A DNA stretch of 60,368 bases, counting the filler, from Circinaria calcarea (lineage: Eukaryota), in NCBI GenBank assembly GCA_051942165.1. It is 4 parts of 4 records of this genome, joined end to end, with 100 filler letters (N's around TTAATTAATTAA, not from the genome) between each part and the next. Parts side by side here need not be neighbours in the genome. Positions count along the whole stretch, not along the records: positions 15,147 to 30,177 come from JAVECS010000392.1; 3 more parts are not named here. One strand, 5' to 3'. The stretch's first letter is position 1; the number at the start of each line of letters is the position of its first letter. Below the pieces are notes generated by a model. That model did not search any database and was not told where the DNA came from. It was given only the letters and a program-made list of their open reading frames with translations. Positions 15,147-57,900 of the stretch are shown here, piece by piece. Both the position numbers and the translations under genes were made by a program.

Positions 15147-15653
15147 CGCTTCATTGATTCATCAGGACCTACTGCATGGCTATATTAGCCATAAGTATTC
15201 ACGGTTTATCATTACTGGGGCGAAGGTTAAATCAGCCGTTGAGGTAGGATTTCCTAACGTTTGGGAAACAATCTGCAGCAAAGCAGACATTGAAGTACCA
15301 GGATGGGTACAGGATGAGAAGGAGGGTGCGCAAGCCAACAGCATCGGCAAAAGGGCTGCACCCGGTATGGTGGTTAAGCTTACTGGTGCAAGGCCGGCTG
15401 GAGCAGCACCTGGGTGAAGAACCCTAACAATATTATGACAATAAGATTAGAAAGATGCCGCCATCGTTGACTGTTTTTCCAGGCCGATCAATAGGACTGT
15501 TTCTTAGTCGCGAAACATCCAGTAAATCTCTACTCCTTGAGTGTACTGCGACCTGCACGGGAGCGCTAATGCTGAGAGCGGCCTCTCAGGTCATGGAGCT
15601 GAAGCGGCCTTAGGAGATACCCAAGCATACACGTGTCCGGGTAAAAGCTGGCG

Positions 15654-16085
15654 TCAGCAAACAGACAGTCTTTTCACCTTTGGAGTGAATGATTTCTGGC
15701 TCTCTCCACCCGTACCCAAGTTTCCAGTCTGATAATTAACGAAATACTCCATCCCACCTTCTGCGACTTCCTTCGAGATCAATTCACTCCCTTGCTTCAC
15801 TTCCCTCTTCAACTGCTCCGCCTTCACCAGATTCAACCAGCCACTAATCTTGGTTTCATGGTTTAGGTACGTACGGCCGCGCGGCCTTTGGCATCGGTAT
15901 TTTGTTCGTAGGGGAAGGGCGGACCGGACGTGTAGGTGGCTCTCATAGGATCGAGCCAGCTAACCTTTTTCGCTTCGTGGTTGTTCCAGTAGGTGCGATT
16001 GGCTGTAGAGTCTTTCTCCTGGGTGAAGTTTGGGGGAATGAACGGGGTTGTGAATATGGAAGAGGCGGAGGGTGGTGATAGACAT
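15654..16085 (-). pseudogene. frameshifted small tandem WW-domain protein gene
   Basis: Minus-strand frames give IPPNFTQEKDSTANRTYWNNHEAKKVSWLDP, then PPFPYEQNTDAKGR/(frameshift)YLNHETKISGWLN, then KEVAEGGMEYFVNYQTG, i.e. 2-3 WW-like repeats. The ATG at 16085 is out of frame with repeat 1, and there is a frameshift near 15870. Confidence 0.6.
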
Positions 16086-16720
16086 GATTCCCCTTATTTG
16101 ATTTGGCTAGTTTATGCCAGTGAAGTTGATGGGATAAGGGGAGTGAAAGTGTAAAGCTAGAGAGGAACGGTCGAAGCGAAAAGAGATATAGGATGTTCAA
16201 AATAGCGAAGTCATCAATGGCTCAACTGGGATATCAGTTCCCACGTCCTCACCCTTCTAATTTTCAGATTGTAGATAGTAAATATAACCTAAGGTAAATA
16301 ATGCGCGTTGAATTATCCGATGATATTCTTGCTGGAACAGAACAAGAGGCGACGAACTAGATAAAATGGCGTTGAACTCGGGGTTGGTAAGGTACCTTAG
16401 CTGGGATCGGGGGAAGGTATGTCCGGTGGCCGAGCGCGTACGGAAGCGAAAGCATTTGACGTGCGTGTATTTCCTAGTAGACCTTCCTATTTCGAGGATT
16501 GCACAGCCTCGTTGCCATCAACTCCCTTTAGATTTCCAGTTTCCCCTCTGTTTCTTGAGTTCACCATGATGAGTATATCTCTTTGGAGGAATCCTCTTGA
16601 TTATTTCTACGCCATTGTGTATAATTATATAATACGAAAGCAATACTTTGCCAAACCACGCATACTATGTATATAAGCAACAGTCAGTCCATATGCCGAC
16701 AGCAGTGACTACGATTTGCC

Positions 16721-19149
16721 ATGACAGAAGTCCCACTTTCTTCGAATGAGCTGTTGTCTAAGATCTTGGATGTGCTCGGTAATATAGATGATAAACTCAA
16801 GGTGCAGGAGGAGCAGTTCAAATGCCTGGAAGCGCTTGTGAAAGCCAACAGTGGCAATGGAGGCATCAACGAGTCCAACGGCTCGGACAGCACGGTGGAC
16901 GACTCTAGTCAGACTATTGCGTCGAAGCACGAATTTGATGGCATTGATGGGAAGTTACCTTCGAGCCCCGGATCTCCTCGGCTACAAGCAGCGGAAGTAA
17001 ATCCTAAGGCCGCTATCTTATCGGTCAAGAGTGATACAACAAAATACCCTTATACGGAATGGGATCGGGCTGGGCAAGTCGTCTCACTCAAGGGAAACTT
17101 AGTGAGCGTCGAGTTCTACCTAAGTGCCTCTGGACTTTTAAAAAGTATACAAGACTACCTGGGAGATTGGTGGGCTATACCCGATGATCATCGAATACGC
17201 CTGACTTTCTCAAATCATGCCTACCACAAAGCACATGAACCTATGAGATTCCTCAGCCAGCCTCCTAGGGCGTATTACTCCGATAGTAGTCTGAGAGCTG
17301 CTCGCCAATTTGACACTAATCTGAGGGCTCTGCCGGGAAACGATTTCTTAGTCATCGACTTCGACGAGCTGAATAACTCGAGGATATATCGACTTGGACA
17401 GAAGGCTGTTGGCAATCCACTCATGGTAGAGAGTGGCTCAGGTTATGATGCGCCGTGGTCAAGATTGATCGTATACCAGGGCATGACATCCGGCGATAGC
17501 ATCAAGCCTAACAAGCAGTCCATAGGATCGTCACGTCTGATGCCGATACCATACTTTAGAAGTGGTGATGCTACTCCTGGATTGTGGCGCCATCTCTTCT
17601 CCCATTTGCAACTTAAGCGCAGGAATGTCACCGTAAACCCGTACACAGATCCCAGCGTTGGCTTTCATACGACGTTTTACGAGATTATACAAGTCAAAGA
17701 CCAACACAACGAGTTATGGAAGCACGGTCCTCTGTACAACGATCCCGCCGGCCGGTCTTTCCGCAAATGTGCTTATACAGTGAGTTTCTTATCCGACTGA
17801 ACCCTAAAGCCGATACTGACGGCGGTTGATAGCTTTACTCCCCTCCTCCAAAGTCGGAATCTCTTTCTCTAGCGGCAGATACCGGTTATTTGTCCAGACA
17901 TTGGACTATACTTCTTATGACGCCAGGCTACTTTTTTGATCAAACCAACAAATCGTTTCCAATGAAAGACTTATCTGCTGACACAAAGCAAACTGTTGGC
18001 CTATCGTTAAGTCAACTCACTAGGTTAGGGGCGGAGATGCATCTGATCAGCCAGGGCCTACAGAGGATCAATGACCGGTGGGCCGACTTCCAGGCATTTT
18101 TCGAATATATTCTTGACAGTGGAGACTCACTAATGCAGCCTACACAACATGATAATCTTCTGTTTGACGATGGGTCGTTCTCCCGGTCCAGACGGTACTT
18201 TTGGGCGATTGACTGCTTGGCCGAATTCGATCTCAGTATAACTGACAATATTACCCAGTGGGAGCTATACAGGGCTTCCCGTTTCTCAAGGGTTGAGCCT
18301 TCTCTTCCGGAACTTGACTACCTTCAGTACAAAAACGCAGAAGAGCAGTATAATATCTTGAAGAACCAGCGCGAGTACTTTAGACAGAAGCTTGCGTCTA
18401 CCAAAGCACTTCGGGACGCTGTGAGCTCTACTAGTCGGTCGATATAATGACGTGCTGACCTAATTTCTGCAGCTCTTCAATGCAAGTGCAGTAATTGAAA
18501 GTCGGGCTTCCACTCGGCTCGGCGAAAACGTCAAACTCCTTACTTTCGTCAGCATCTTCTTTCTTCCTTTATCGTTCTGCACGGTATGCCCAGATTTCAT
18601 ACTCATCTCATGCTATCGCCACTTCCCGCTACTTTGCCGTACTTCGCAGGAATATGACCCTCCTACCATATCCTTCATCGAACCCATCTTACGACCTTCA
18701 TAAGCAACAACACTAACAAACCCCGACAGTCCCTTTGGAGCGTCAACTCCCTCTTCTCAACCACCGCCCTCATCTACACCATCACTACCGTCGGCACCGC
18801 CACCTACCTTATCGTCCTCAACATCAATACCCTCGTCCAATCATTTAGCCGTCTTTACCAAGCTCGCAAATCAAACCTTGTTAACGCAATGAAGACGGAC
18901 CCCGAGGAGCTGTGGAAACTGCGTGGTCAACGCTTTGAGATTTTTCGCCCCAGGCATGAGAATCCACAGCCATCGGAGTGGTATATGTTACTATATGCGA
19001 TGCTGCATCCTTGGGTGTTGCTGGGGTTTAAGACGGGAGGAGAGAGGAACGGGGGAGGAGGGAAGAGGCACCTGACTTGGAGGATATGGCCGTTTGGAAA
19101 AGCGACGAAGGAACCGGAAGAGCGAGATGAGGCTTGGGTAATTGAATAA
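16721..19149 (+). CDS. fungal CorA-like membrane protein; exons 16721-17779, 17833-18420, 18473-18583, 18730-19149
   Basis: LLFDDGSFSRSRRYFWAI and LRDA/LFNASAVIESRASTRLGENVKLLTFVSIFFLPLSFCT/SLWSVN followed by a second TM helix. GT-AG introns with CTRAC branch sites keep the frame. Confidence 0.85.
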
Positions 19150-19580
19150 TCTTTTCACGACCACGGCGGGGGTCATGTAAATATCTACTGTATCTCATCA
19201 GCAAAGTAATCTTCCATGGGCCCGATTGGATTAACTCTTGATTTTGACTTTCGGACCTAACACCATCTGCCAATCCCCCTACCTATCCTTCTTCCACCAC
19301 GCCTTTGGCTACTAAAATCCATCGCGCCAGAACTAGACTAGCGATTTCAAGTCCGCGAGACTCAAACCCAGTTGGCAACTAAAGGTCCGAGGATAGGAGT
19401 GGGAAGGGAAAGTAAGTAGGTAGCTTAGCTAGCTAGGCAGACATGCGCAGCATGACTATCTATCTAATCCACGGTCAACGTGAACAAAACAGTTTCTCCA
19501 CCGCTTAATCTGCTCTGTCAGATGCCATCCACAATACCATGGGGTTAAACATCCTTGACGCTACTCTTGCGTTATGCTAT

Positions 19581-21201
19581 CTACAGAGGGTTTGACTTTG
19601 CCCTTCGCCTAGGCCTAAGCCTAGGCCTAGGCTTGGATAACTCTCCCCACTCGGCTTTCTTCTCCAGTGGTAGCGAGGCCGCTCTAACTTGTCTGGGAGC
19701 CTCGTTGTGCTCCATCTTCACCCTCTTCTTCGGCAATGTTTTCGACGGCTCTACAGATTCAGCTCGATGTTTTAAGTCTTCTTTGACCTTGATGATGATC
19801 GTCTTTGGCTAGGTAGAGTTAGCAGAAGGACGCTTAGTACGAATGGTATCTAGATGCCTTTGGTTTCAACTGGTCGCCCCACGCCATGACCGCTCCCCAT
19901 AAATCTTTAATAGTCGACTGACTTAGAAAAGTGGCGGCGGGCTGCATCTGTATCACTTCCCTAGTGAAAGCGGCAAAACTGTCCTCAGTCAAGGCTTTTG
20001 GACTTTGGAGGGCCAATGGGTAGGGTATGCCTGCTCTCGAAATTGCTACGAAGACTTTCATCAGAGGTGGAGGCTGGATATCGTCAATCGAGTGCGACGT
20101 GTATGATTGGATTGCCTGCCAATACTGATCGCTTTCCTGGTTGATAGTCTAGTAGGCGGATTAATGGCCTATCATGAGGGTACCCAGAGCTCCACATGGA
20201 CCTACCTGCTTCAGACATTTATCAAGGATCTTTGCTCGAACTTCTTGAGTGCTATCGACCATCAGTTTTATCTTCGTCTCCACGATTGCTCTGTAAGCAT
20301 CTCCTATCTGAGCTCGTGACGGTATCTTCGGATGGTTCAAAACAAGAGCAGAAAGGCGGAAAAGCTTGAAATTAGATAGGTCGACGGATTTTCTTGCAAT
20401 GGAAGCTTCGAAACTTTGTGGTATCATTATGACGTGACACTGGAGTTTCGCTTCTTTCAGAATGTCCTTTGACGGGATGCAAGACGCTGGGAGTGTATCT
20501 GGTTTCCCCTGCTGGACGAATGTGTTGCGCAATTTCTTGGATTTCTTGAACCACTTCCTAGCTTCAGGTTCTGACCACGCACACTCTATTGCAGCCTTTT
20601 TATCGTATTCGTGCGCTTCTGAGTAATCTATCCTGATCATGTGCTCCCAGACTAGGAAGACTTCTTGATCTGTAAGTGGTAATTGCCGATTGCACGACCG
20701 TAGCTCTGAGCGCCACCACGAGAAGTCGAGAAATTCAAAGCGTGTCCCCATATAGAAGTATGGCAGATGTACGATCTTCTTCGTGTCAAATATAAAAACA
20801 TGGTTCGATACGCGCTTTATGGGACGCTTCGAGGGCTCGTAGAAGCTTAGTTCGAAGCTGGGTACATTCTGGAGGGGATAGAGCATTCTAAAGAGATGCA
20901 GATTCGCCCAGAAACGTCGCATCCTTGGACCGTAGAGCTATTTGTAACGAATCAGTGCCTCAAGCACTACGTCAGAAACCATCTCTTGGCCTACCTGATT
21001 CAGCCATAGCTCTTGGTTTGCTCGATAAGTCTCATCAAAATTCAGGACTTTGTCAAGCTCCCTTTCACATTGCTCTCTGGTGAGTCTTAGTGGCTCGTTG
21101 CACCTTACCATATCATTCATGAACTTGTACATAGAAAAGGTGCGCTGGGGAGGTGAACGTAAAGGGGGTACCGTCAGCTGTGTACTTGAAGACGATGCCA
21201 T
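19581..21201 (-). pseudogene. orphan gene of about 520 codons interrupted by three in-frame stops
   Basis: ORFs 20938-21219, 20161-20922 and 19834-20061 share one frame and are separated only by TAG (20938-40), TAA (20161-63) and TAG (20149-51). A probable final exon follows a GCTAAC...TAG acceptor at about 19810. Confidence 0.65.
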
Positions 21202-21540
21202 GTTGTGGATCTGATTCATGCATGAAAGGGCGGAATAAACAATCAGATATACCTAACGTGTTGCTCCAGACAAGCACTGACGAGTTTACAAATCGAAAAC
21301 CGCTTTGGTGGAAGCGATGGACTCTAAGCTTGTGTTGTGTATCAAAGAATACGCGAAACTTTGACGAGTCCAACTAGTGAAGGGTCCACAATTAGAAACG
21401 AGAATTCGATCTTTAGAGAATATGGGAACCAGCCAAGCCTTGCAGATATTTGATTTCTGAAATTCACCAAAGTAAGGAGTGATCGTAGAGACCCTTACCA
21501 TCGCGGGATCTGTGAGAAATGCCAAAAAGAAAAGGCCCTC

Positions 21541-21574
21541 CAAAAAAAAAAACAAAAAAAAAAAAACAAAAAAG
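21541..21574. repeat. interrupted poly(A) tract
   Basis: A run of about 30 A interrupted by single C residues. Confidence 0.85.
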
Positions 21575-24171
21575 AACGATCCGAGAATCGAACACGGGCT
21601 GGGAATCGTCCAAATGGTAGTTCCCACTTTGATTACAGCCGAGGTCATCTATTGAAGACACCCTCATTGGGGCTGTACCACCGAAAATCGGACTCACGCT
21701 TCCATTGCCAACGCACTATATATCCAATTTTCATGCAAAGTTATTTCGTTAAATAAGATATAAACATCAAAAGCGCCATTTTAGAACATCAACGCAACGT
21801 AATCACATGCTTATGTTTGTCGACTACACAGCTCTGATAATTAAATTACAAGGCGAATCACACGTCTTGCGAAGGATGCACCATCCACATAACCTATTCA
21901 AAGTTGAAACAAAGAACAGAAGTTCTTCTCAGCATTGAATAAGTGAATACAACTAAGCTAGATACTTGCACTTGCTTAAGAGAGCGAACATAAGAGAGGA
22001 TCCATCGCTGCGCATAGAGCACCATGAGGTTTACTCTACCTGAAGCGCAGTCTACCTAGTCTTATAATGGAAGTCAACTACTAGGAGATATCTTACTTAC
22101 AATACGGCACCAGAGTCCACACATGGCTAGATGATCATATCAAATGCTGCAGTTGAAGAGATGTCGTTGATAATCTCTTCCATAGTCGCGAGCCTACCGC
22201 GTACGGTGGACCAAATGGACATTTTGGAACCTTGTCTACGCGTCTATTTCACCAATCAGGACCGACACAGAATAGTTCGATTGGAATGACCTTGGCACGC
22301 AGACAGCTACTATCCGATTAACCAATACTCCCAGGGCAACTTCAATAAGCTCCATCTCTCTACTTAGCCTATAGAGCCAAGCATACAATGGCATCCGAGG
22401 CCCCCTCCCCAATACAGAAGCCGACCGGCCACAGGAAAGCTCGACTTGTCGTACTAGAATTACCAACTTCCCCGTTGGGAACCCTTGAATCCAATGCTCC
22501 AGTATCGAGAAATCCCCGCGGAACTACAATGAGTGCAAGAAGTGGCAGTATTGTTGATGTGTCCAAGATCGATCCTCCAGCCAGAGCTACCAGCACAGCG
22601 CTGAAGAGAGCTCTATCCACAATTCTAGTTGAACCAACTCGCCCACGGCTTTCCTCCTCATAAAACCCTCCCCGCAGCCTGAATGGCAACTCAGCTGTCC
22701 AAGTAAAGGTCGTACGGGGATAGTGAGGGTCTTGTTGAGCTCACATACGATGTTGGCGAATAGAATCTACAATCTCGGGTCTTTCTGATATCCCATGATG
22801 ATCCTGGGTATGTGGAGACCCTTGGAATGTGCGATTCCGGATAGTAGGCTGATGAAGACGATCGCCATTCAGCGTAGAGCTATGCAATCTCCTCCCGAGG
22901 CCGATTACAGATCCGTCTCCTCTTCTTTCTGAACCTAGCTGCCGGTCGCGACCAGCTGGACCCCATGCTGTGCTCTGGCCGGATGAAAAATCCGTGGGCG
23001 AGTGGAGGAATCGCGAGAAGAGGGAGACTCGTCAGAAGATCCAATAACATGCGTATCGCCTCTTTGCCTAGTGTTCAAACAAGAAGGTTGAGTGCGACGC
23101 TGCTGAAATTCAAAGTCGCGGTTTCCTCGCGTAATCCGTGAGGCATTGATCGAGCGTCTCGCCGCCTATTTAAAGGGAAGGATGGAGAATGGTTTTGCAA
23201 AGGCGACGAACAATTACCAAAGTGGGACCTTCCCGAGCCCCGGCGAGCTTCTAAAGGATTGGTTCGGCCCTCTTCCTCACTCGTTGTATCATAGCTCGAA
23301 GATGGACTGGAACCATCTGCCGTCGACTGTTCCTAGACTAGTACTTCATGCCAATCTCCCTTCTGCTCCCAGCCAAATCTTTTCTTATGTCAACTGTGCG
23401 TCTCCTTTCCCTTTCTTTTGCTAGCTCTGTTTGATTCATCAGGTTTGTTAGTTTGCTGTCCATCCCCTTGTTTCTCTTTTTCACCGTGTCGCAGACATTC
23501 TTTGCACCTGCGCCTGCATTTATATGAGTCGATAATGTCTAGTATATCTGACCCCAGACTTGGAGGCTATCCTTGAGTAGGACGACAAAGACAAGCTTCG
23601 TTCCCGCAACCGCAAGTGTATACGTCAGCCATCTGCTTGAAACCCAAGCCAGTTTTAAATTTTCCCATGGTGACATCGATGTAATGTACATGCCCCAGCT
23701 ATTATATCCATCACAAATTTCCATGTTTGTTTACCTAAGGCTGCCAGCAACATGTCCATCGCTATAATCATCCGGTTCATTGATTGCATCAAACAACGGC
23801 AAGCCGAAAAACAGCTTGATAAACCAGCTCAACATGAATCAAGGTAAGGTAAAATCTAGAATTCTGTCAACTTCTAAGTCTATCTAACCTGCAAAGTATC
23901 GTACGTTCATGACTGGTCATACCGGATTGTCATTGCAACATGATGTTCGTGAATGTTCACCATCACAGTATTTTGCTGCTGGGCTTTCGCGAATCGTGGA
24001 AGATACGTCCTGTTATGTTTGGCTATGTTAACATATTGAGATGTTATTTCCGTCACTATTGCTCTTGGCTTCATATGCAATCTCTGATAACTTTGGGGAT
24101 GCGTCGTGACAATGATGTTGATTGCATAAAATGCTCTCTAGATCCTATGGCATGCATGATAAACATGTCCT

Positions 24172-25434
24172 CTAATATCTAGTATAGACCTGCGTTGCCA
24201 TAACCACCATGATCACCATAACTGCGACCAATATCTCCACCGTCCAACCTCGAGCTAGCGCTCCTAGTAGTAGGACAGGGGAGATACGGTATGCTAATCT
24301 TCTTAGCCTTTCTGTTGCGTCAGAATTGTTGAAAGAGTTCTGTTGTGATACGTCCTTGCAAGGACTGCTATAGAGGTCTTCCCAATTGTGAAGACACATG
24401 GGATTCTTGTAGTAACGGCGTGGCACAGGATGATTATCATAATCACCGCAATACGTGTGAGGGGTATATCGGCTGTGACAATGTATGGGCCATCCACAAC
24501 CACGACGGTACATGGGAGAATCCAAATGGTGATCACGATTGGACGGAGACAGGCAGCCGCCACGGAGAGCTGGTTTGGAGAATTCTTTGTCGGTGTCATC
24601 TGCAACAGATGGTTTCTGGTAGCTTGGTCGTTGGTCGGCGAGGCTCGTAGATTCTACTGGACGGCAACCTTGAGTAGTGCGGTGGTCTTCAAAGTCTGTC
24701 TCAGTAAAAGTGGAAATGGGCAGTGCGGAATTTACTATACCACCGTGTTGACTGTTTCTCTCGTCTCCACCCAAGCGAACGGCATCTCGCTGCGATGAGT
24801 TCTCCCCCACGTATCGATAGGTGCGAGGACGTTTTGTGCGGTTTGCATTCTCTTCATCATCGGAATACTCTTTTTCGGCTCTTTCCTTCCTTCTATCATT
24901 GCTCTGTCCGTCGGCATCATTCCCGTCATCTGCCGCTCGTTCGTGCTCCTGTGCTGCCACAGTGCTCTTCTCAAGCGGATCTGGATTTATATGGGGTTGT
25001 TCCTCTGTAGCTGGCATCTTCTCGGGTTGAGATACACCGCCCTTTTGAATATCTCCATGACTAGATCTCCTACCCTGAGGTCCTCTCTGCCTAGAGGGAG
25101 CAGGCTCACCTATCTCTTCCGTTTCCGGTCCCTGTTGCAGAGTTAAATCCGGCCCGCGTGAAGCCGTCACATCATCAGCTATCCTCTGCTCCCGAACTCC
25201 TTGATTTGGTCTTTGTGTGGCTCGAGTTCCTTGATTCGGTACAAGGTTTCTATTGCCTGTCTCATGGGCTGTTCTAGGAGCGCCACCCCGGCGTGCTGGC
25301 TGGTTGTGGACGTTGAGGGGTTGTATGAGGTCTGAAACTATTGCGATTGATGCCGTTGTGGCGGTGAGGCCTTGAGCGCAGGGGATGAATTTGCAGCCGC
25401 AGTAGGCTTGGGCGTAGGGGAGTGTGCAGGCCAT
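24172..25434 (-). CDS. hypothetical protein (420 aa): disordered middle, Cys/His-rich patch, C-terminal hydrophobic helices
   Basis: Long uninterrupted ORF, upstream ATATAAAA near 25610 on the minus strand, C-terminus ISPVLLLGALARGWTVEILVAVMVIMVVMATQVY. Confidence 0.65.
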   Translation of the reverse strand: MACTLPYAQAYCGCKFIPCAQGLTATTASIAIVSDLIQPLNVHNQPARRGGAPRTAHETGNRNLVPNQGTRATQRPNQGVREQRIADDVTASRGPDLTLQQGPETEEIGEPAPSRQRGPQGRRSSHGDIQKGGVSQPEKMPATEEQPHINPDPLEKSTVAAQEHERAADDGNDADGQSNDRRKERAEKEYSDDEENANRTKRPRTYRYVGENSSQRDAVRLGGDERNSQHGGIVNSALPISTFTETDFEDHRTTQGCRPVESTSLADQRPSYQKPSVADDTDKEFSKPALRGGCLSPSNRDHHLDSPMYRRGCGWPIHCHSRYTPHTYCGDYDNHPVPRRYYKNPMCLHNWEDLYSSPCKDVSQQNSFNNSDATERLRRLAYRISPVLLLGALARGWTVEILVAVMVIMVVMATQVYTRY

Positions 25435-26904
25435 TCCTTTGGTGTGCTGTGGGATGGAACGTTATTCGAGATGTTGGGGGTGTTCGTCTGGGCGTGGAGA
25501 TGAATAAAAGAGGCTCTTTTCTTAGGTGGAAAAGTTTGAGCGGTAAGATGATGTGGTTGAGGTTTTTGCAATGAATCGATATCTTCTATTTTACCTTATC
25601 CTTTGTCTTTTATATTCTTTTTCTTCTTCTATCAAACACTATCACTTTCTAAGTTTTGATGTTTGTACCCGATCCCGCAACCTCAAGCACAAATCAGCAT
25701 CCGGATGACTCTAACTCATAACAAACTTCCATAATGCCCTGCTCGGTTTGCAATCTCGCTCTATCTTCCGACACAGCCACACCATGATGGCAGCAATCGG
25801 GACGATTCATGTCAGGATGCTGGATTACTGGACTATGAAACAAACCTCTTGGATCACAGCATCGACACCTTTCAGAGCATCTAGACAGCATTTCTGCGGT
25901 CCCGACCCAGCCTTTGATCCACGTGCCTAGATTTTATACCATGAACAATTAATCGTCGTACAAAGGGGCTTTTGTAAACCTCAGTCGTCTAACCAGCAAA
26001 CAATGCAAGCTAGGACCCCACTCGACTCTTTTAACCTCATACTCACAACTCACAGTCTACTCCAAAATTATCGGCCGAAGCTTTTCCCTAGACCACACCG
26101 CGCGGGAAAGTCTGGACCAGGTAGTTCATGCCTGTTCGACAGCTTGTTATGGGGTCAGTGCCATACTTAAGGAAAGTTAGCACCGGAACGGAGGAACCAT
26201 GGACCGGTTGTTTAGTATGCTCATGGAGGTAAGCAAGGTGAGCAACGTATTATTATATAGGCAGGCTATTCCCGCTCCTTAGATTAGCATGCTTATAGAC
26301 ACCAAACAACTAGAATAGCAATAGACACATATTACGTTCCAGGTAATTGGGCGCCCACAGAGTGACTCTATCCCTTATATAAGTCTAGCCTATCCTAGCA
26401 CCCTTACAGGTATTTTCCTACATTTAATTTCCGTTAAGGTTAGTATTTAAGCTGTAATCTGGACTGCCAGTTTAGTTTAGACTGCTGGACTAGTGCGGAC
26501 CCTATTTGGAAATAAGAAATAGCATGTTCGAGGGGTATGAGAGTAATTCCTTCGTTAAAAATTGCCTATGGAAGAATTTTCGGGGGATGATTGTGTCAAA
26601 AGGTCTAATCTATAACTATGGAGGTGGTTGGGTTCTATATACCGGGCGTACCAGCCACCAGAATTATGACCCCAGCCACCGTACAAATTACAATACAAAA
26701 CATGGTATCCTTGCTCAACAGGGGTCGCTGGTGTCAAATTCTGACAATCTGGGATAAATAGCAAAACGCGCGCCTATTAGCGCCCATTTTCATTGTTCCC
26801 CGGCGAAGCCGGGTTTAACACTCGCCCTTAGTAATAACGACTGTAGGAAGGTACCGGCATTGCTCCCCGTTTATGTAAACCGCTCCTCGCCTCGTGCAAA
26901 TTTT

Positions 26905-26950
26905 CGGCGTAGGCATCGGCGTAGGCATCGGCGTAGGCGTTGGCATAAGC
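26905..26950. repeat. degenerate 12-bp tandem repeat (CGGCGTAGGCAT)n
   Basis: cggcgtaggcat cggcgtaggcat cggcgtaggcgt tggcataagc. Confidence 0.8.
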
Positions 26951-27176
26951 AGCAGCTACTGCCTCACGTTTTAACAGGATCGAACGACCGGCTTTCTGCT
27001 TCTTATTAGTTTGCAGGCGGGTGCGAGAAGCCGGGCCGGATTTGTCATCATCTGAGGGTGAGGGCGATTTGCGCTTGTTATCTTTGCCACTGCATAGGGG
27101 CCAAGGATGTCAGAAAGAGGAGGATGAAGTGGAATGATTGTGACTGTACAAACAGGAAGGAACTGGGGAAAGTGGC

Positions 27177-27694
27177 TTACGCTGGTTTATCGTCCCAGAA
27201 AAATGCAACCTTGTCCGTTCCTTTCTTATCGGCTTTCTCCTTGGCAGCTGCCATTTTCCCACCTTCGACTAGAGCAGGTAGTTTGGTCAGTAAGAGCTCT
27301 ATATATTTGAACTTCATAGTCAAAGGTTTGGAACGACTGCAGTCCTCGTACCATGCTGTCCCTTACTTCCAACAGATTCGACATGAGCTCCTTTCCCGCC
27401 TTCCTTTAATGATGCATGCGGTTTCTCATCATTCGTCTTTCCAGGATGTGTGGGAAGACCTCCAGTTGTTTCCTTGCGATTTTCATTTGTTACAGCCTTG
27501 TCCTTTGTGAGGTGTCCTAGCTGCACGCCGTGCTGGGCTTGATTCCGAGCTGTATCCACTCCATCTTTGCTCTCGTAGTTGACGCGTACCGGAGACGGAC
27601 TTTTGCTTCGGGAACCAGCTGGACTACCCCCTGGGAGAGCAGAGGCGGATGTGAGGGTGAGGATTGCACAGAAAATGATCGCTGAGAGCTTCAT
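27177..27694 (-). CDS. secreted NucA/NucB (ComI)-family deoxyribonuclease-like protein, 144 aa; intron 27269-27351
   Basis: Signal peptide MKLSAIIFCAILTLTSASA. The core NRKETTGGLPTHPGKTNDEKPHASLKEGGKGAHVESV matches the NucB pattern R..S..G.PT.PG...DE.P.A...EGG.GA.V..V. A GTACGA...CTGAC...TAG intron gives the in-frame exon 2 (V)EGGKMAAAKEKADKKGTDKVAFFWDDKPA and stop. Confidence 0.85.
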
Positions 27695-28597
27695 AGTGAG
27701 TAATGGTGACGTGATAAGAATAACAGGAAATAATAGGTTTCTACAAATGCTAGAACCGAGAGGGAGAATGGAAATTAAAGTCAAGGACCGGCCTTGAGAT
27801 TTTTGATGCTTGGGAGAGTTGAGCTTGTATATCATGGTAGAAAGAGAGGTCAAGCTACTCTTATACTAAAATGTCCGCCTCGAGTACGCTATAGCTAGGT
27901 AGGCGACAGTTGGCGTCGTAAGCAGCATTACAACAGTGGGAACCAACTTGGGTGACTCCCCTTGGTCCCAGTGGATGAAGTTTCGCAAGGAACTATTCCT
28001 CTCTCCTCCATGCATAACATAGGACATGATAGCGAACGAGCATTCCCGATCTCACATCGCGAACGTTGGAAAATTCCATAGTCCATGGGTTGTCTAACCA
28101 ACCTACCTTTAAACGTTGGTCAGCTTCGCAAGTAATTGTCCCGAGACCTCGCGGCTTGCGAGAAGGTCTTCGAACCGGCCCCAGAGGGGGCGGCACAGGC
28201 AAGGCAAACGGGTTTCGAGGGGTTACCGAATAGCAGATAGTACTCTGTATGCAATCATTAAAGCAATTATTCAATACCCTTTTCGCTTCTCCGAGCTAGA
28301 TGATTATACCTCAGAGATATATACGGAGGGGTGGTAGAAGGTCTATGGAGAATGATTTGACTACTCGATAAATTATAATATTATACGTCGGTAATACATC
28401 GGTAATAACTCGGAACCGGCGTGATTTTTGCCGCCCCCTGTGGCCCGTGGTGTAATCGCTAGAATAGGTTTAGCCCCAACAACGCCTTAACACAACTGTT
28501 TTCTGTGAAAACAACTCTGTTGCCGTATCAACTGTTACAGAACGGTCAATCAACTAGTCCATGGAGGTTGGAGCCCAAAGCGGGACTTGAAAGTGAA

Positions 28598-28604
28598 TAT
28601 AAAT
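28598..28604 (+). promoter_or_regulatory. TATA box upstream of the 28769 gene
   Basis: TATAAAT about 170 nt upstream of the ATG, followed by a CA-rich 5' UTR-like stretch. Confidence 0.5.
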
Positions 28605-28768
28605 ATCGGTGCCATAAGCTGATTCATCTCCAGACAATACATACAGCCATCACTTCCAAGCATAAGAAGTTACAAACCTCAGACCAAACAGACACACCGA
28701 ACACCACTTATATCGAAAGAGTAATTTATTTAACCCAGTAATCGATACAATAAACAGCATTTCTCGAA

Positions 28769-29369
28769 ATGACTATCCAGGACACAATTGCTCAAGGGTC
28801 CATGATGTATCCCGTTTTTTGTTCAGCAGAGGTTCCAACTGAGGTACGTTCATAGAACTCAGCGTAATTTCCTAAAAGAGGGTAATAAACCTCACCCTCG
28901 CTAGCTTCTGGACAAACTCATCATGGAATCTCGAAAAGGGCTGGCGGCAATTGGCGGCGCCGGTGCCTTGTTCATCATGCAATCGAATTATATCGTCGCC
29001 CGTCATGGCTCTCGTCCACCCATACAGCCCTTTGAGTCCCCGTGTCTCGGAAGAACTGTTGAGGATATTTACGGAAGCTTTAAACGAGGTGTGGTTCCAC
29101 AGGACTACTTCACCGAGCATACCTTTGCAATTGTTGACGACGAGACCGCTTCGACTAAAACTATTTTGGTCGCTAGTGATGCGGATGGTTCCCTGCAGAC
29201 CGTGCGCAGCGACTTCTGGTCCTCACTGCATGCCATGGTTCCATTCGAGATGAAGACTATCACCGTCCAACAAAGCAGCGCCGGTGGTAACGGTTTAATC
29301 AGCAAGGAGTTGATTAAGAAGCAGGATGCGGACTATGATGCCATGCAGAAAAGTCAAAAGGCTGAATAG
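28769..29369 (+). CDS. hypothetical cytoplasmic protein, 179 aa; intron 28844-28904; candidate nuclease immunity protein
   Basis: Exon 1 MTIQDTIAQGSMMYPVFCSAEVPTE splices (GTACGT...TAG) in frame to LLDKLIMESRKG...PPIQPFESPCLG...FAIVDDET...VRSDF. Globular-looking, with no signal peptide. Confidence 0.8.
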
Positions 29370-29816
29370 GGATCCATTGCTTTACACAATTATGGCAGGT
29401 TCGGGTGGCTTCAAGTGGACATCCCAGAAGACGCTACACGGAACGGTGTGGAGCGTAGATCTGGGAACGCTACTGTATTTGCTTATCGATGCCTTTCTAT
29501 CTGTAGTTTAGAACCTCACCCGTTCATGAGAGCACGAATCCTCTTTTCAACGGCATCCCAGTCAGTGTCCAAGGTTCGGTCCCGGGAGGAGGAAGCCTGA
29601 ATGCATCGAAGCGGGATGAACCCCCTCTCCTCTCCTTGTCCTCTCTTTTCCTTCCCTCCCTCCTTTGGCGCGGAGCCGAGATCTAAACAATACATATGCT
29701 TTCCCTGGAATCCAACTCGTAGCTATGCTCGCTTCACTCCGGAAAAATTGTACCAACGGATGCATAATGATATCCAAAGAAAGTCCGTCCTCCAACTAAC
29801 CCCACAAGTCCCCACA

Positions 29817-30075
29817 TCACCTCCGATCGAAAAACCAGCTACTCCTCTTCCCTCCCTCTTGTCCTCCCAGCAATCCACTCAGCACCGGAACGTTCGGTCC
29901 CCCTGCTCCGGTTCCATTGGTGTTATCAAAGGCACCACCGCCTCGAAGCGGTTTCGCGATGCGGGAGCCCGCGCCGCCGAAACTGAAGCCGCCGGTGGAG
30001 GCGATGGAGGAGCGTGTGGAGCCTAGCTTGGCGGCTTCGAGACGGTCTTTTACGGCGGTGAGTTGGGCTTCGAAA
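29817..30075 (-). CDS. kinA: kinesin-1 heavy chain, last exon only (rest lies beyond the contig end)
   Basis: FEAQLTAVKDRLEAAK...GSRIAKPLRGGG...KRSSWFFDRR and stop: the IAK autoinhibitory tail of fungal conventional kinesin. Preceded by a CTAAC branch site and TAG acceptor. Confidence 0.92.
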
Positions 30076-30177
30076 CTATTGGGACGGCCACAAGGAAAGG
30101 TTAGTTGGTTGTAAGTGTATGGGGGAAAAATGAAGGGAGAGAGGGGGAAGGGTAGGGGCTGGAAGGGCTGATAGATA

Positions 30178-30657: not shown

Positions 30658-32351
30658 CTACCCGCAGACCATGGCTTCCTTTGGCATTTCCTCTTCCTTC
30701 ATGCCATCGGCCGCATCGACTTTCTCCCGTTCCGATATTGCAATCGGACTCGCCTGCACTTGCCTTTCGACTTGCTCCTTTTCTCCCAGCTTCCGTCTGT
30801 CTTTCTTGCTCAACGTGAGACTCCCTTTCTCCAACGCCTCTTTGGGCAACGGCCGCACATATGGCTGACACACCCACCACGGCCTTTTGCATGCTCGGAC
30901 AGCCGCGACTGAACTATCGGAGTCCGGCCCCTGCACGTCTCCGTTCTCGCCATCGCTGAGATTGATGGATTCTGGGCGTTCCTCGTACTTTTCCGGACCT
31001 GCTTCGTAATCGAGAAGGCCCTCGCGGGTAGCTTTCTCGACCAGATGTAGGACATTCTCAAAAGCTGCCATGTCACCTGCTCGAGAACGCGCCAGTGCAT
31101 CCCGTGCTTCAGTATACTTTGCAACCAAGGGACGGAGGAGATGGAAAAGATGTGCTTGCATGGATAGGAGGTTCGGTGAGGTAGGTTTGGTTTGCTTGTG
31201 GTCCAGCTTCTGCTTCTTTGCTGGAGATTGGCCGTCCGCCTCGTGGACAGCTTCATTCACCAGGGCCACCTCTGTAGTATCAGCTCCTAGATCTGAGGGG
31301 ATGAATAGAGGCTGCCGCTTTGGTGGCGGCTTCTCAAGGACGTATCGATATAGAATGTCCATATATCTTCGGAAAACAGCGTCCACCCTGTATCCTCCCT
31401 TACCATCTCTACCTCTCCAATATTCCCGGCCTCCTTGGCCCGGTGGAGGTGGCTCAGCAAAAATAGCCGGATCACATAAGTTACCTTCCGCGCTCATCAC
31501 GCCGTCAGCGCCTGTCTTTTCTAAGCACGTATGGATGTCTCTGTGCTGCAGTATGTTGCCATTTGCAAAAAGTACAGTGTCAGGCGGAAGGTTGTCCCTC
31601 AAGAAGCGCAGGACGGACCAGTCAGCTAAGCCGGTTTTGTGTCCTTTCTGATCTCTCTGTCGGCCATGGACAGTGAGAATACTGGCGCCCGCGGAGATCA
31701 CCACTTTTGCATATTTCAGGGTATCCTCCTTCGTCTCCAAAATTCGTATCTTTGCTGTTACTGGGATGTCAAGATTCTTGTGAAGATTATTGATCAGCCT
31801 GTAAACAAGGTTCTGGTCCTCCTGTAAAAAGGCGCCGTAGCGCCCTTTCCGTGCAATACCTTGCGGGCACCCTAGGTTTAAATCTACCGCGTCGCAGAAT
31901 GGCTGCACATATCTCGCTGCTTCTAATAGCTCTTCTGGATCGTTGGCGCAGAACTGGACGAAGAGAGGTCGGTCAACAGCAGGGTTTCCGTCCAGATGTG
32001 CTATTTCAACCGAGGGTATGGATGTTAAGCCGGCTCTTACTGGCTGAAAGTGGTGATCCCGATATTTGGCGGTCTCCGTAAACATTCGAGCATGTAACAT
32101 AGGCGTGTAGGCAAGCAGATTTTTAGACGATTCAGGGGCCATGAAGGACCTTGTGAGTAGTCGCCATGCCTACTAAAACCAGTTAGCATTAACAATGGTT
32201 TGAAGAGTGTAGAGACCAAGGAGATCCGTACGAACTCTGACTGATCCACCATCGGGGCAAGAATCAGCTTCGGGCTTCCCAAGCTCTCATAGAAAGCTCG
32301 CCCAATGAGCTTCACTCGGGGAGGAGGCGGTGACGGGTTGATGGAAGCCAT
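30658..32351 (-). CDS. DUS1: tRNA-dihydrouridine(16/17) synthase, one intron about 32171-32231
   Basis: ILAPMVDQSEF/AWR, YTPMLHAR, DRPLFVQFCAND, DLNLGCPQGIARKGRYGAFL, LTVHGR, ANGNI and GVMSAEG. Confidence 0.95.
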
Positions 32352-35274: not shown

Positions 35275-36231
35275 TCACAAACCGCCCGTCGAGCCCGTCG
35301 CGATCAGATTCAACCAAGCCGCCAAGCGGTACCCCGCCGTCGCCACGAGCAACTGCACCACCGGGATCGCACTCTGGTAGTAGGCACCGTCCAGATCGCC
35401 CGTCTCCGTCGCGGCCACCCCATTCGGCAATGCGGTACTGCAGACATATTTATTCGCCTCGGTCGCCCAGCCCGTCGCCGTTGTCACCGGATTCTGCAAG
35501 CTCAGCCCTGCCACCCACCCGGCCTTCTTGGTGCTATAACTGCCCGTCTTGATCTGGGCCGTCAGCGTGGTGGCCCATTTCTGGGCGTCGGCGAGGGCGT
35601 GCGCGCCGTGCGTGTAGTATTCCGGGATCGCCGTGTCCCAGACGGCGTGCAGGTTGGTCTTGGAGCCGTTGAAGGTGACGGGGATGGTGTTGCCGCCGAG
35701 GTTGAGGGCTTCGTCGTGCAGGGGCTGGTGGATGTCGCCGATGAAGTGGACCAGGAATTTAAGGGCTTGGAGGACTTGTTCTTGGGGGAGGGTGGTGGAG
35801 CGGACGCGGGAGGTCTGTGGGAAAGGGTCAACATGGGATTATTGGGGTGGGAAGGAGGTCTCCAGGGGAGTATTTTGTAAGTGTGAGTGGAGGCTTACGT
35901 AGTTGTTTATGGCAGAAACGACGCAGCCGCTGGCACCACAGTCGCGGGCGTAGTCCACGTTGCAAGCGGAGGGGGGACTGTCTTCGGCGTCGATGAAGTG
36001 GTACGGTGCACTGTACTTCCCAGCTGTCGTAGTCCTGAAGCTATCGGCCCAGGTAGCCACATTGGCGAGGTAGGATGTGCTGGTGTCGCTCAGAAGACCT
36101 TGGCAAAAGGTCTTTGTCTGAGCAGAGACAAAGTTTTGTGCCACGTAGGCGACTGTCTCATGAGCGAGGAATCCCCAGGCATAGGCGCAAGGGAGGCTGC
36201 CGAGCGCGAGGAGGGGAATAACGGCTTTCAT
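35275..36231 (-). CDS. secreted S1/P1 nuclease, one intron about 35817-35898
   Basis: Signal peptide followed by WGFLAHE, WADSFR, HFIDAED, KFLVHFIGDIHQPLHDE, GGN and NLHAVWD Zn ligands. Confidence 0.95.
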
Positions 36232-37585
36232 GGTGAGTGTTGATACCTCGTTTGTAAGTGCAGAGCTGATGGCCAGGAGGTGATAGGACAAAGCAGCGCG
36301 ACATGTCCTCTCCTTATCAAGGTCATCGTTGCAGCGAGCACGTCCTGTTTCGACCAAGTCGTCCGAAGGTACATGGCGATTGTCGGGGCTCGTCCCTTTA
36401 GTGAGAGTGTGACGATGTCCGCTAACTCTCTAAATGGCTCCAATTAAAAGTCGTAGATCTTCGCACGCAGCTCGGCTGTCCTGCATTAGCGCCGGACACG
36501 GCCCTGGCACATCTGGCAGCTGCTTCCCATCACTCTGATTATGCCACCTGCGACCTTCCCAAAAGTCACCGGAGGTCGTTTGTGCAGTATGACTGCAGTA
36601 GTCACCGATTTGTTTAATGGATTAGATGAGGCATGTTGGGGGCAGACCTGGACAAGGGGGATACTGAGTTTGCCAAGGACCATGATTATTTGAAGACATG
36701 GCTGAAGATGGTTTGCCCGGCTTATACTGATATTGTGCTTCAAACATTAATCGAGGTAGCGATGGGAGGATGGGCTTGAGAACGGACACAAGACACTTTG
36801 CAAAATGTGAAAGATGAGACTGTTATTGGGTGATCTGAGATGGTAGTGTAGCATCGAGGTCTGTTCTTTGTTGATGTTCTGGTGGTGCAGAGGAGGAGGA
36901 TTGAGATGGAAGCGGAGGTTTTGGTCACGGCGGGTTAGAAATGGAGAGGGTGGCGGCGCTAGAGGAGTATTTTGGCATTCGGCTGAGTAGGAGTGGAAAG
37001 CAGGGGCATCATGGGTTTGGGGACAGAGATCTTAGAGGGGGGAGGTCTGAAAGCTTGATACTGCATGTGTATCATCTTGATGTCTGGTGTACCCCATAGG
37101 AACCGTTAAAGCTTGCGCAACCCTATCCTCCTGGCTCGGCTCGAGCATTGATATCTTCTAGAGATTCTGAAACCATAGCTACCAATCAGACTCAACGGAC
37201 GCCTTTTTGGTTGATTAGTTGTGCAACGCACCCGAACTGCCCCATTGGATCCAGGAAAGAGATCATGAAATAAAAGAGGCGTTTCATTAAGAGATAGATA
37301 CAAGAAACCCGAAACGATTCATGCTCTCGACCCCCATGAATCAATGCTTCAAAATATATTCCCCCGCATCCGGATTAGTGGACCCCCCGAAAATATGAAT
37401 GATATCATAATACCCTATGACGCCTACAGTACACGAGCTACTTAAACCCCACCAGTACCAACGTGGGGTACCTTTTTCTCAATCACCATCCTTCTACTCA
37501 TAATCAGCCATACCTCCATCGGCTTCCCCAATTCCCCCAAAACAAACTCCACTACATAAAACCCACACACACGACCCGACAAACC

Positions 37586-56455: not shown

Positions 56456-57900
56456 ATGTATTTTCAAAGCATAATACTCGCAGCCGCTACTTTGAGCGGG
56501 AATGCCTTTGCCAATGAAATGGGCAGCAGAGTCTAGAAGTGTAGCTGTTTTCAGCGTCGATGACTTGTACAGCAGCGATGTCACCAAATAAGTTGCGATA
56601 CGCCCAGAGCCTTCCATTGCGGCACTGCTAGCAACGGGATATGAATACACAGACACCTACACTTCAGCCCCGTCAAATTCCTTCTTAGGCGCGCTGAACG
56701 TACTCACCGGTGCCAGCCCAAGGATCACTGGTGTCTGGTACGAAGACACATACGGCCGCTCCTTCTACCCGCCGTTTTCTGTTGGTGGAGGCTCCTGCGA
56801 TGGGCCCATGGGAGCTGAGGGTTAGAGTTTCTCGCCTTGAAAGCATAAGTTTCGAGATCATGCTGACTACGTCGGTTCAGTTTTATATTACGAGAGTATA
56901 GATTTTAATGCTACCGAGCTCTTCTCTAACAACGTCAACCCTACCCATACAAACGTGCTCGCAAGCCAGTGGTAAGGAGACCGCGTATACAGATAAGCAC
57001 CTGCTTATGATCTTTTCGGGGGACCATCCGGTCAGGGCCTGACTGTGAGCTAGTTTCCTGAGATCGCAGCTGTCGCCAATACCGATAATGCTACGATCGC
57101 CTACATGTCAAAGCTGTTCTTAAGTGGATTGATGGTCAGACCCGGAGCATTCCGAGGTTCAGAGCAAGGGCTTGATCATCACTCCGGCTCTATCCGGTGG
57201 GAATTTCCAAGCTGTTAATATTGCGCAAAAGACACACGGTTACAAGAACGGCAGTCTCGACTTTACTACCGAGCTCCTCCAAGCTGTTGACTTTGTCGAT
57301 GCCTCTTTTGGCAAAGTCGTCGCAGCTCTTAAGGCGAAGAAGATCTACGACGTTACCCTAGTCATTATTGCCTCCAAACACGGTCAAGCGCCTATTGACC
57401 TCTCGCTATTCAGGAAAATCAACTCTAAGCCAGCCCCAGCTGCGACGGAGGCCAACGTGTCTTCCGTTACAACCGACGGCATTGCTTTGATCTTTCTCAG
57501 CCAATTCACTGTCGCCGCCGCCGTTGACAATTTAAACCGTGACCGCAACACCCTCCAAATCCAAGATATCATATCCCGCGAGCGCCTGACCTACCTTGGC
57601 TATGGTAACCCCAAGACCAACCCCGCGGTTCCTGAAATTATCGTGTGTCCAGAGCTGGGTATTATCTATACGACATCCAAGTCAAAGATTGCCGGGAACA
57701 TGGAGGGCTGAGCGTTGACGACAGGGAGGTGGCGTCTTTTGCGAGCAGTCCGAGGTTGAAAAGGAAGGTTGACTCCCAGTAGGTGTCAACTAGGTACGTT
57801 GCTACTACCATTTGGAAAGGTTTGGGCTTAGATCCATGTGCCTTGCATGGAGTTGTGGTTGTGGCGAGGGGACACAGCTTCTTCCCAGCTTCTGAGTCGT
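56456..57900 (+). pseudogene. decayed secreted type I phosphodiesterase / nucleotide pyrophosphatase (alkaline phosphatase superfamily)
   Basis: Signal-like MYFQSIILAAATL, VAVFSVDDL...TK(stop)VAIRP...GYEYTDTYTSAPSNSF...TGASPRITGVWY, GGNFQAV, FVDASFGKVV, ASKHGQAPID, and KIA(G)-HGG frameshifted. Several stops and frameshifts; end approximate. Confidence 0.85.

Follow-up and report, generated by a model that had tools for sequence, protein, structure and literature searches.

A strongly diverged NucB-like protein with an altered active site encoded in the genome of the lichen-forming fungus Circinaria calcarea

Background

A minus-strand gene starting at position 27694 of a stretch of Circinaria calcarea DNA (assembly GCA_051942165.1) raises the question of how a protein resembling the small secreted Bacillus nuclease NucB came to be encoded by a fungus, and whether it can still cut nucleic acids with the surroundings of its catalytic residues changed. 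The whole stretch analysed, referred to as the window, is 60,368 nucleotides (nt) long, filler included, and consists of four record parts joined end to end; the gene lies in the part at positions 15,147-30,177 (JAVECS010000392.1), and all positions given below are window positions. As judged from the comparisons described here, the product is a strongly diverged member of the NucA/NucB (Tox-ComI, PF14040) family of beta-beta-alpha-metal nucleases. It appears to be encoded by three exons, the first of which carries most of the nuclease-like domain.

The best studied members of the family are the NucB enzymes of Bacillus licheniformis and B. subtilis (PDB entries 5OMT and 6EJS; PMC5758888). According to the part of that study used here, Glu94 of NucB is the general base, Asp93 and Asn117 are metal ligands, and His53 positions Asp93, while Arg77 contacts the scissile phosphate and Arg92 the -1 phosphate (PMC5758888). 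Alanine mutants of Glu94, Asp93, Asn117 and His53 are described there as having no significant activity. The same source reports that reduction of the Cys66-Cys100 disulphide was without effect on activity, and therefore this disulphide is not essential.

Results and discussion

Relatives and assignment to the NucA/NucB family

A phmmer search of 1.84 billion representatives at E<=1e-3 returned 11 proteins. Two were fungal-looking, namely P0004 (62% identical) and the Xylographa soralifera protein P0006, eight were bacterial NucB-like proteins and RHS toxin tips, and the last was P0005, a protein of 1908 amino acids (aa). P0005 was rejected as a relative: its nine short matching stretches covered low-complexity query residues 30-71 only, and its last 130 residues were inspected. 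When about 15 billion proteins were searched with a profile of the fungal sequences (3772 word candidates), four proteins only were recovered, P0003, P0004, P0006 and P0015, the latter being a public C. calcarea protein of 240 aa from a genome bin. The other fungal rows are only 33-37% identical to the Xylographa protein. P0015 and P0006 come from lichen-forming Lecanoromycetes of the Ostropomycetidae, from the orders Pertusariales and Baeomycetales. A scan of Joint Genome Institute (JGI) metagenomes with the fungal profile gave 597 pattern matches, none of which was confirmed by tblastn. To date, every member of the clade comes from a lichen-forming fungus or from an environmental contig.

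Compared by phmmer with 177,635 distinct PDB sequences, the exon 1 product matched three at E<=10, each of them B. licheniformis NucB (query residues 62-113 on chain residues 34-85; E 2.3e-6 to 4.4e-6). The four-sequence fungal profile found the NucB N117Q mutant 9FJ7 as its best PDB match (E 2.3e-8). A profile built solely from 120 bacterial homologues scored the spliced protein at 43.7 bits, and the alignment was colinear, beginning at the N-terminal helix and ending at the last beta-strand. The colinearity with NucB put forward in the original prediction was recovered in the exon 1 match and with the bacterial-only profile; identity over the domain is about 26%. A scan of NCBIfam gave nothing relevant.

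Predicted structures were in agreement with this assignment. For both AlphaFold2 (AF2) models, that of the Xylographa orthologue and that of P0015, NucB entries (5OMT/6EJS/9FJ7) were the only Foldseek matches in the PDB at E<=0.001, the models having been built from alignments that consist mostly of NucB homologues. The Xylographa model (mean predicted local distance difference test score, pLDDT, 75.6) had 59 matches at E<=10, and the three NucB entries among them reached template modelling (TM) scores of 0.72-0.75 on the target. The P0015 model (mean pLDDT 70.1) had at least 500 matches, with the three NucB entries superposing at a root mean square deviation of 2.6-2.7 Å over 96-98 columns. 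NucB, a small secreted protein of beta-beta-alpha-metal fold, is the only PDB fold matched in this way.

Catalytic residues kept and replaced

We aligned the four fungal sequences with 120 bacterial rows, which are the best 120 of 1299 matches and come mostly from Bacillota. The Asp-Glu dyad of NucB, Asp93 and Glu94, corresponds to Asp89-Glu90 of the window protein (27425-27430, minus strand, like all codon positions in this section); Glu is present in 124 of 124 rows, and Asp in 119 of the 120 bacterial and all four fungal rows. Equally constant (124/124 rows each) are Arg73 at the Arg77 position (27476-27478) and Glu98 (27401-27403), the Glu of the 'EGG' motif and third acidic residue of the Tox-ComI signature. 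D89, E90 and E98 together make up this signature in the form given in the cited part of PMC3482391. Gly, Pro and Ala scaffold residues of NucB are kept as well.

Unlike the dyad, the metal ligand Asn117 of NucB is replaced. At this position, which is Asn in 120/120 bacterial rows, all four fungal proteins have Gln (Gln113 in the window protein, 27356-27358). The His53 position is occupied by His in all bacterial rows, in P0004 and in P0006, whereas the window protein and P0003 have Asn (Asn51, 27542-27544). The 124-row alignment therefore bears out the original description of the site, in which the DE pair was kept, the upstream His read as Asn and the SDN position as KGQ. As far as the aligned proteins go, the general pattern is an Asn-to-Gln switch fixed across the whole small lichen-fungal clade, and the His53-to-Asn change is specific to the Circinaria-like lineage.

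Further residues that line the NucB site are also missing (NucB numbering). Arg70, an Arg in 120/120 bacterial rows, is replaced in all four fungal rows, as are Asp91 and Arg92, which are likewise kept in every bacterial row and read Thr-Asn in the window protein. Of the DRDE motif, then, the Asp and Glu of the dyad are present and the two other residues are exchanged. Trp95 is Trp in 109 of 120 bacterial rows and Lys in 4/4 fungal ones, and Arg118, constant in the bacterial rows (120/120), is replaced in three of the four fungal rows. In place of the DNRG motif the window protein has Gly-Gln-His-Val and so lacks the metal-chelating Asn.

Cys66 and Cys100 are both Cys in 113/120 bacterial rows and absent from all four fungal rows, the window protein having Leu at both positions. 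The pair is also missing from bacterial toxin tips and from other homologues outside the Bacillota clade, and both groups have Leu at the Cys66 position. Judged by these rows, the lack of cysteines is no fungal novelty.

A Gln at the metal-ligand position is also present in the engineered B. licheniformis NucB N117Q (PDB 9FJ7), a laboratory mutant of a Bacillus enzyme that is wild type in all other respects, whereas in the lichen clade it occurs naturally and throughout. The crystal structure 9FJ7 was released in 2025; a literature search for a paper on this entry or on NucB N117Q activity found none.

Proposed function

The reading we favour, and to which we give an even chance, is that the protein is a secreted nuclease which has remodelled its active site and retained its activity. 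After secretion, it would cut nucleic acid outside the cell regardless of sequence. A divalent cation would be bound by Asp89 and, in place of Asn, by Gln113 through its amide oxygen, Glu90 would act as general base and activate the water, and Arg73 would hold or stabilise the scissile phosphate. In DNA binding, lysines might stand in for the lost Arg92, Arg70 and Arg118. The replacements seem chemically similar, since Gln retains the amide oxygen of Asn and Asn could, like His53, form a hydrogen bond with Asp. This similarity and the invariant dyad would favour continued selection on a working site. Retained activity is likewise favoured because the fungal proteins, otherwise about 35% identical, all share the dyad, the Arg and the Gln.

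Alternatively, catalysis may have been lost and the product may be a pseudo-nuclease, that is, a secreted protein, rich in Lys, that binds nucleic acid or another polyanion, for instance extracellular DNA of the thallus matrix, or a DNA-binding effector as suggested in the original prediction. We regard this as the main rival and a serious one, though less likely than retained activity. Several observations weigh against our proposal, and those concerning the active site speak for such a binder. The window protein differs from NucB at both the His53 and the Asn117 positions, and the corresponding alanine mutants of B. subtilis NucB, H47A and N111A, are without significant activity in the cited part of PMC5758888. 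Arg92, Arg70, Arg118 and Trp95, which 109-120 of the 120 bacterial rows share, are lost in the window protein, the first two and Trp95 in the entire fungal set. NucB N117Q has been crystallised, and a mutant of this kind is often designed to slow the enzyme down. A very long branch of the clade, a NucB-like core with 15% Lys and an isoelectric point (pI) of 9.2, and a ratio of non-synonymous to synonymous rates (dN/dS) of roughly 0.6 in the C-terminal tail would also suit a binder. Yet a binder need not keep the catalytic Glu, the metal Asp, the third acidic residue and the phosphate-contacting Arg, all of which are invariant in the clade at about 35% identity, and the replacements that did occur are chemically conservative.

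The remaining points against our proposal concern the comparisons themselves. The bacterial rows used as reference represent mainly Bacillota. Because mostly NucB homologues entered the AF2 alignments, the agreement in fold does not count as evidence separate from that of the sequence, and in the Xylographa model the region of the Gln-bearing helix (residues 108-132) has a pLDDT below 50. Against the Pfam model PF14040, a check that the original prediction had suggested, exon 1 scored 18.9 bits and P0015 15.9 bits, both below the gathering score of 23.8. The orthologue P0006 passed with 31.3 bits; since the Bacillus-type NucB homologue P0011 also fell just short (22.9 bits), this cut-off decides little.

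Gene structure and product

From the start ATG at 27694, a frame of 114 codons is open on the minus strand, to which all exons and introns described here belong. Exon 1 (27352-27694) comprises codons 1-114 plus one base and accounts for the signal peptide, a linker of low complexity and the greater part of the NucB-like domain, as judged from its translation, which is identical to that quoted originally, and from the match with NucB. The predicted intron 1 (27269-27351, 83 nt, phase 1) carries the signals GTACGA...TACTGAC...CTAG. It had been proposed at exactly this place, and its removal restores colinearity with both the Xylographa protein and bacterial NucB. Exon 2 (27181-27268) encodes the remainder of the domain, a helix remnant and the last beta-strand.

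The original model ended the gene at a TAA (27179-27177) and thus arrived at a product of about 144 aa. This TAA sits within G|TAAGC, a consensus fungal splice donor, of a predicted intron 2 (27090-27180, 91 nt) with a GTAAGC donor, a CTGAC branch site and a CAG acceptor. Because the first-read stop falls inside this donor and the intron joins a third exon, the product would have about 230 aa rather than about 144. Exon 3 and its stop (26828-27089; coding 27089-26831, stop 26830-26828) had been missed; they add a C-terminal tail of 86 residues. Altogether, the full-length protein has about 230 aa and three exons, on splice sites that are predicted.

Several lines of evidence join exon 3 to the gene. 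Its open reading frame (ORF) has no ATG ahead of the final 12 codons and is therefore not a stand-alone gene. P0015, which is 100% identical over exon 1, contains the third-exon tail. The exon 3 tail and the tail of Xylographa P0006 gave a local alignment score of 52, compared with 29.1±5.8 for shuffled sequences (2 of 1000 shuffles reached 52), and are homologous. They follow a common plan, with a basic stretch first, then a segment rich in Ala and aromatic residues, and Pro-Ser-Tyr...Tyr at the C-terminus. A relative about 89% identical, on a biocrust metagenome contig that spans window positions 26767-27968, has two +1 insertions in intron 2 (27113 and 27156). Exon 3 of the relative lacks 2 bases and, five positions away, 1 more (net -3), and carries 28 substitutions (10 synonymous, 18 non-synonymous), the frame remaining open to the same stop. 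The dN/dS value given above is a rough estimate from this comparison of the window with its relative, and the tail can be described as fast-evolving on this basis. Among the sequencing runs listed as carrying the sequence, one was of DNA, with a small share of 0.06, and none was of RNA.

The public model P0015 differs at intron 1. It uses an intron of 53 nt instead (27299-27351, acceptor 27299/27298), which adds 10 residues directly after the Gln of the active-site helix. These residues fall opposite a gap in the alignment with Xylographa P0006. The bacterial-only profile gave 40.7 bits for P0015, compared with the 43.7 bits reached when the 83-nt intron was removed, and only in the latter case did it align over the whole domain. 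The insert of 10 residues in the catalytic helix is thus probably spurious. P0003 and P0004, which are prokaryote-style gene calls, read into what is apparently the same intron straight after the Gln.

As the record is a lichen metagenome-assembled genome and lichens are rich in bacteria, we also considered whether the locus could be an artefact, either bacterial contamination of the genome bin or a dead gene. We regard this as highly improbable. The gene sits amid a 60-kb window of eukaryotic housekeeping genes (four joined records), the Pfam content of which is eukaryotic throughout (MTHFR, NOG1, Dus, DENND11/DUF4484, S1/P1 nuclease, MIF, MMM1 and others), and the GC content near it is ordinary. 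It has two predicted introns of spliceosomal type and a eukaryote-type signal peptide, its frame is intact in the 89%-identical relative, where the net indel in exon 3 is in frame, and an orthologue of the same architecture exists in another order. It is a genuine nuclear gene of a lichen-forming ascomycete. Since the succession of signal peptide, domain and tail is common to the Circinaria and Xylographa proteins, the gene predates the split of Pertusariales and Baeomycetales, unless it moved between them.

Signal peptide, domain composition and C-terminal tail

The predicted domain order is a signal peptide, a short low-complexity linker, the NucA/NucB domain at about residues 46-144, and the tail. 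The signal peptide (residues 1-19; 27638-27694, minus strand) was judged by eye to be hydrophobic and of eukaryote type, with cleavage probably after Ala-Ser-Ala; AF2 modelled residues 4-18 as a helix. It contains the sole Cys of the protein. Residues 20-144 have 0 Cys, 13.6% Lys and a pI of 9.5, in accordance with the cysteine-free, Lys-rich mature protein described originally.

The tail starts with a basic Ser/Pro/Asp linker, continues with a predicted Ala/Tyr-rich helix and ends in a Tyr-rich C-terminus. AF2 models it as a single long helix, at residues 158-201 in Xylographa (pLDDT about 80-90) and 173-227 in P0015. It might serve as a processed pro-segment, in self-association or in matrix anchoring. 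The ESM Atlas returned no usable look-alike when queried with the tail alone, and a docking test of the Xylographa domain (residues 23-142) against its own tail (150-212), run without controls or a supplied alignment, gave no answer (score 0.00).

Three ideas about the tail were dropped. A Kex2 pro-peptide was rejected, the Leu-Leu-Lys-Arg site not being kept in the 89% relative, in which Lys-Arg is changed to Asn-Arg; a second dibasic site is kept there as Arg-Arg, and the support as a whole is too weak for a claim of processing. An acidic stripe of the tail helix was considered as a DNA mimic and discarded, the corresponding Xylographa positions being mostly Lys. The third idea was that conservation of the Ala-Tyr repeat reflects selection. 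Its Ala-Tyr-Ala-Asp units are encoded by a perfect 12-nt tandem repeat (26904-26938, 2.9 copies), and the relative differs from the window at the equivalent position of two repeat units (26909 and 26921), 12 nt apart and both synonymous; the array and these differences weaken the argument.

In the 3' flank of the gene (window 26583-26767) the contig of the relative skips 183 bases and carries 27 other letters, pointing to an indel or a replaced segment.

Evolutionary origin

The family was defined as Tox-ComI by Zhang et al. 2012, who, in the part of the paper drawn on here, record the family for Dictyostelia, Ascomycota and Basidiomycota as well as for the polymorphic toxins of bacteria from several phyla, and count it among the toxin domains laterally transferred to fungi (PMC3482391). 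Because of this publication, neither its presence in fungi nor its bacterial origin is new.

We inferred an unrooted tree, the bootstrap of which had not settled, from 43 rows: the four fungal sequences, two RHS tips and 37 representatives of the 120 bacterial rows, the other 83 having been dropped as near-duplicates (at least 78% identical to a kept row). Non-lichen fungal PF14040 proteins were not part of it. In this tree, the fungal clade was monophyletic (100/100) on a very long branch and fell outside the Bacillota NucB clade (100/99), beside the RHS tips P0009 and P0014 and then P0007 and P0010; the RHS repeats of the toxin-tip proteins were identified by Pfam.

Like the fungal proteins, these four closest Tox-ComI tips lack the Cys pair, have Leu at the Cys66 position and possess the DE dyad together with the third acidic residue. 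Unlike them, they keep His53 and the DRDE and DNRG motifs, are fused to RHS repeats and, according to the cited part of PMC3482391, are paired with immunity proteins, whereas the fungal protein stands alone behind a signal peptide. A ComJ/Nin-like neighbour was not seen in the window, where no search was aimed at one. In comparison with Bacillus NucB, the fungal gene differs by its eukaryotic signal peptide, two introns and 86-residue helical tail, and the encoded protein by a basic, Lys-rich surface in addition to the replaced residues.

Two routes into these fungi have to be weighed. A bacterial Tox-ComI toxin tip may have been transferred into an ancestor of the Ostropomycetidae, separately from other fungal PF14040 genes, for which we see a fair case that falls short of an even chance. 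Apart from the fungal relatives and P0005, all phmmer matches were bacterial and no other fungal PF14040 protein was among them, just four proteins were recovered with the fungal profile, and the position of the clade beside the RHS tips as well as the Leu shared with Cys-free bacterial forms point in the same direction. Against this, the tree holds not a single non-lichen fungal PF14040 sequence, and as it is unrooted and the fungal branch extremely long, the attachment point of the clade may simply be the root. Furthermore, the nearest ESM Atlas clusters, which with scores of 0.81-0.84 are no more than a lead, consist of Ascomycota PF14040 proteins with lengths of 258-269 aa, near that of this protein.

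These clusters would rather suit the second route, in which the gene would be a rapidly evolving branch of the PF14040 genes that are already common throughout Ascomycota, with no lichen-specific transfer; we give this close to an even chance. The clusters have 70-121 members, annotated as deoxyribonuclease NucA/NucB domain-containing proteins, which resemble the lichen proteins in being fungal, of similar length and nearest by language-model features; they were absent from the phmmer matches at E<=1e-3. Table 2 of PMC3482391, where the family is listed for Ascomycota and Basidiomycota, is in line with this route, and NucA/NucB domain fragments have been reported on yeast linear plasmids in the part of PMC8472843 used here. 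What speaks against it is that at E<=1e-3 phmmer found bacterial but no other fungal members; the argument is an indirect one, since every match becomes weaker when the branch is long.

In our view, a transfer specific to the lichen lineage is therefore about as likely as descent from an older fungal stock. Of the old bacterial transfer put forward in the original prediction, the bacterial origin is consistent with the phmmer matches and the tree; an old transfer specific to this lineage is not shown, the family having been listed in fungi since 2012 (PMC3482391, cited part). Whichever route applies, the family ultimately goes back to bacterial toxins or competence nucleases.

The most far-reaching scenario would combine these elements: a lineage confined to lichen fungi would have taken up a bacterial toxin-tip nuclease, rebuilt its active site with the Glu base, Gln for the Asn ligand and Lys for the Arg clamps, and added a self-associating Ala/Tyr helical tail. 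We regard this combination as speculative and unlikely. The Cochliobolus exDNases were set aside; in the part of PMC6401486 cited here they are TatD-type and DNase-I-like enzymes and not NucB.

Other genes of the window

At 35275-36429 (minus strand), about 8 kb away in window coordinates, an S1/P1-type nuclease gene is spread over two ORFs (PF02265, E 1e-48 and 4.5e-21). It is a second likely nucleic-acid-degrading enzyme in the window. An ORF at 57133-57711 (plus strand) matches type I phosphodiesterase/nucleotide pyrophosphatase (PF01663, E 9e-8) and may encode a phosphate-scavenging enzyme. No Pfam match at E<=1e-3 and 1e-5 was obtained for the ORFs at 24172-25461 (minus strand, 429 codons) and 16709-17800 (plus strand, 363 codons). 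The former is the next long ORF (at least 120 codons) on the low-coordinate side of the NucB-like gene; on the other side the ORF seen is that of Dus (30658-32169).

Conclusions

Two gene models are corrected by this analysis: the original one ends early, and the public model of 240 aa probably has a spurious insert of 10 residues. Apart from the 3' end of the gene, the original observation is largely right, and its family assignment holds at the level of the superfamily. The transfer story is plausible and, for the family, not new. What is new is a natural variant of a known nuclease family with a putative Gln ligand; its helical tail is unexplained.

Nucleases released from cells have roles in shaping biofilms, in scavenging phosphate and in disarming traps made of extracellular DNA. 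An enzyme of this kind could matter in a lichen thallus, where fungus, alga and bacteria form a consortium that is long-lived. The clade amounts to a natural experiment on the NucB active site, in which the Asn ligand of all 120 bacterial rows has become Gln in every lichen member and one sub-lineage has additionally lost His53. If the protein is inactive, it would be an example of a toxin domain turned binder. If it is active, it would widen the known chemistry of Glu-type beta-beta-alpha-metal nucleases and offer a disulphide-free scaffold related to an enzyme that is studied as an anti-biofilm agent.

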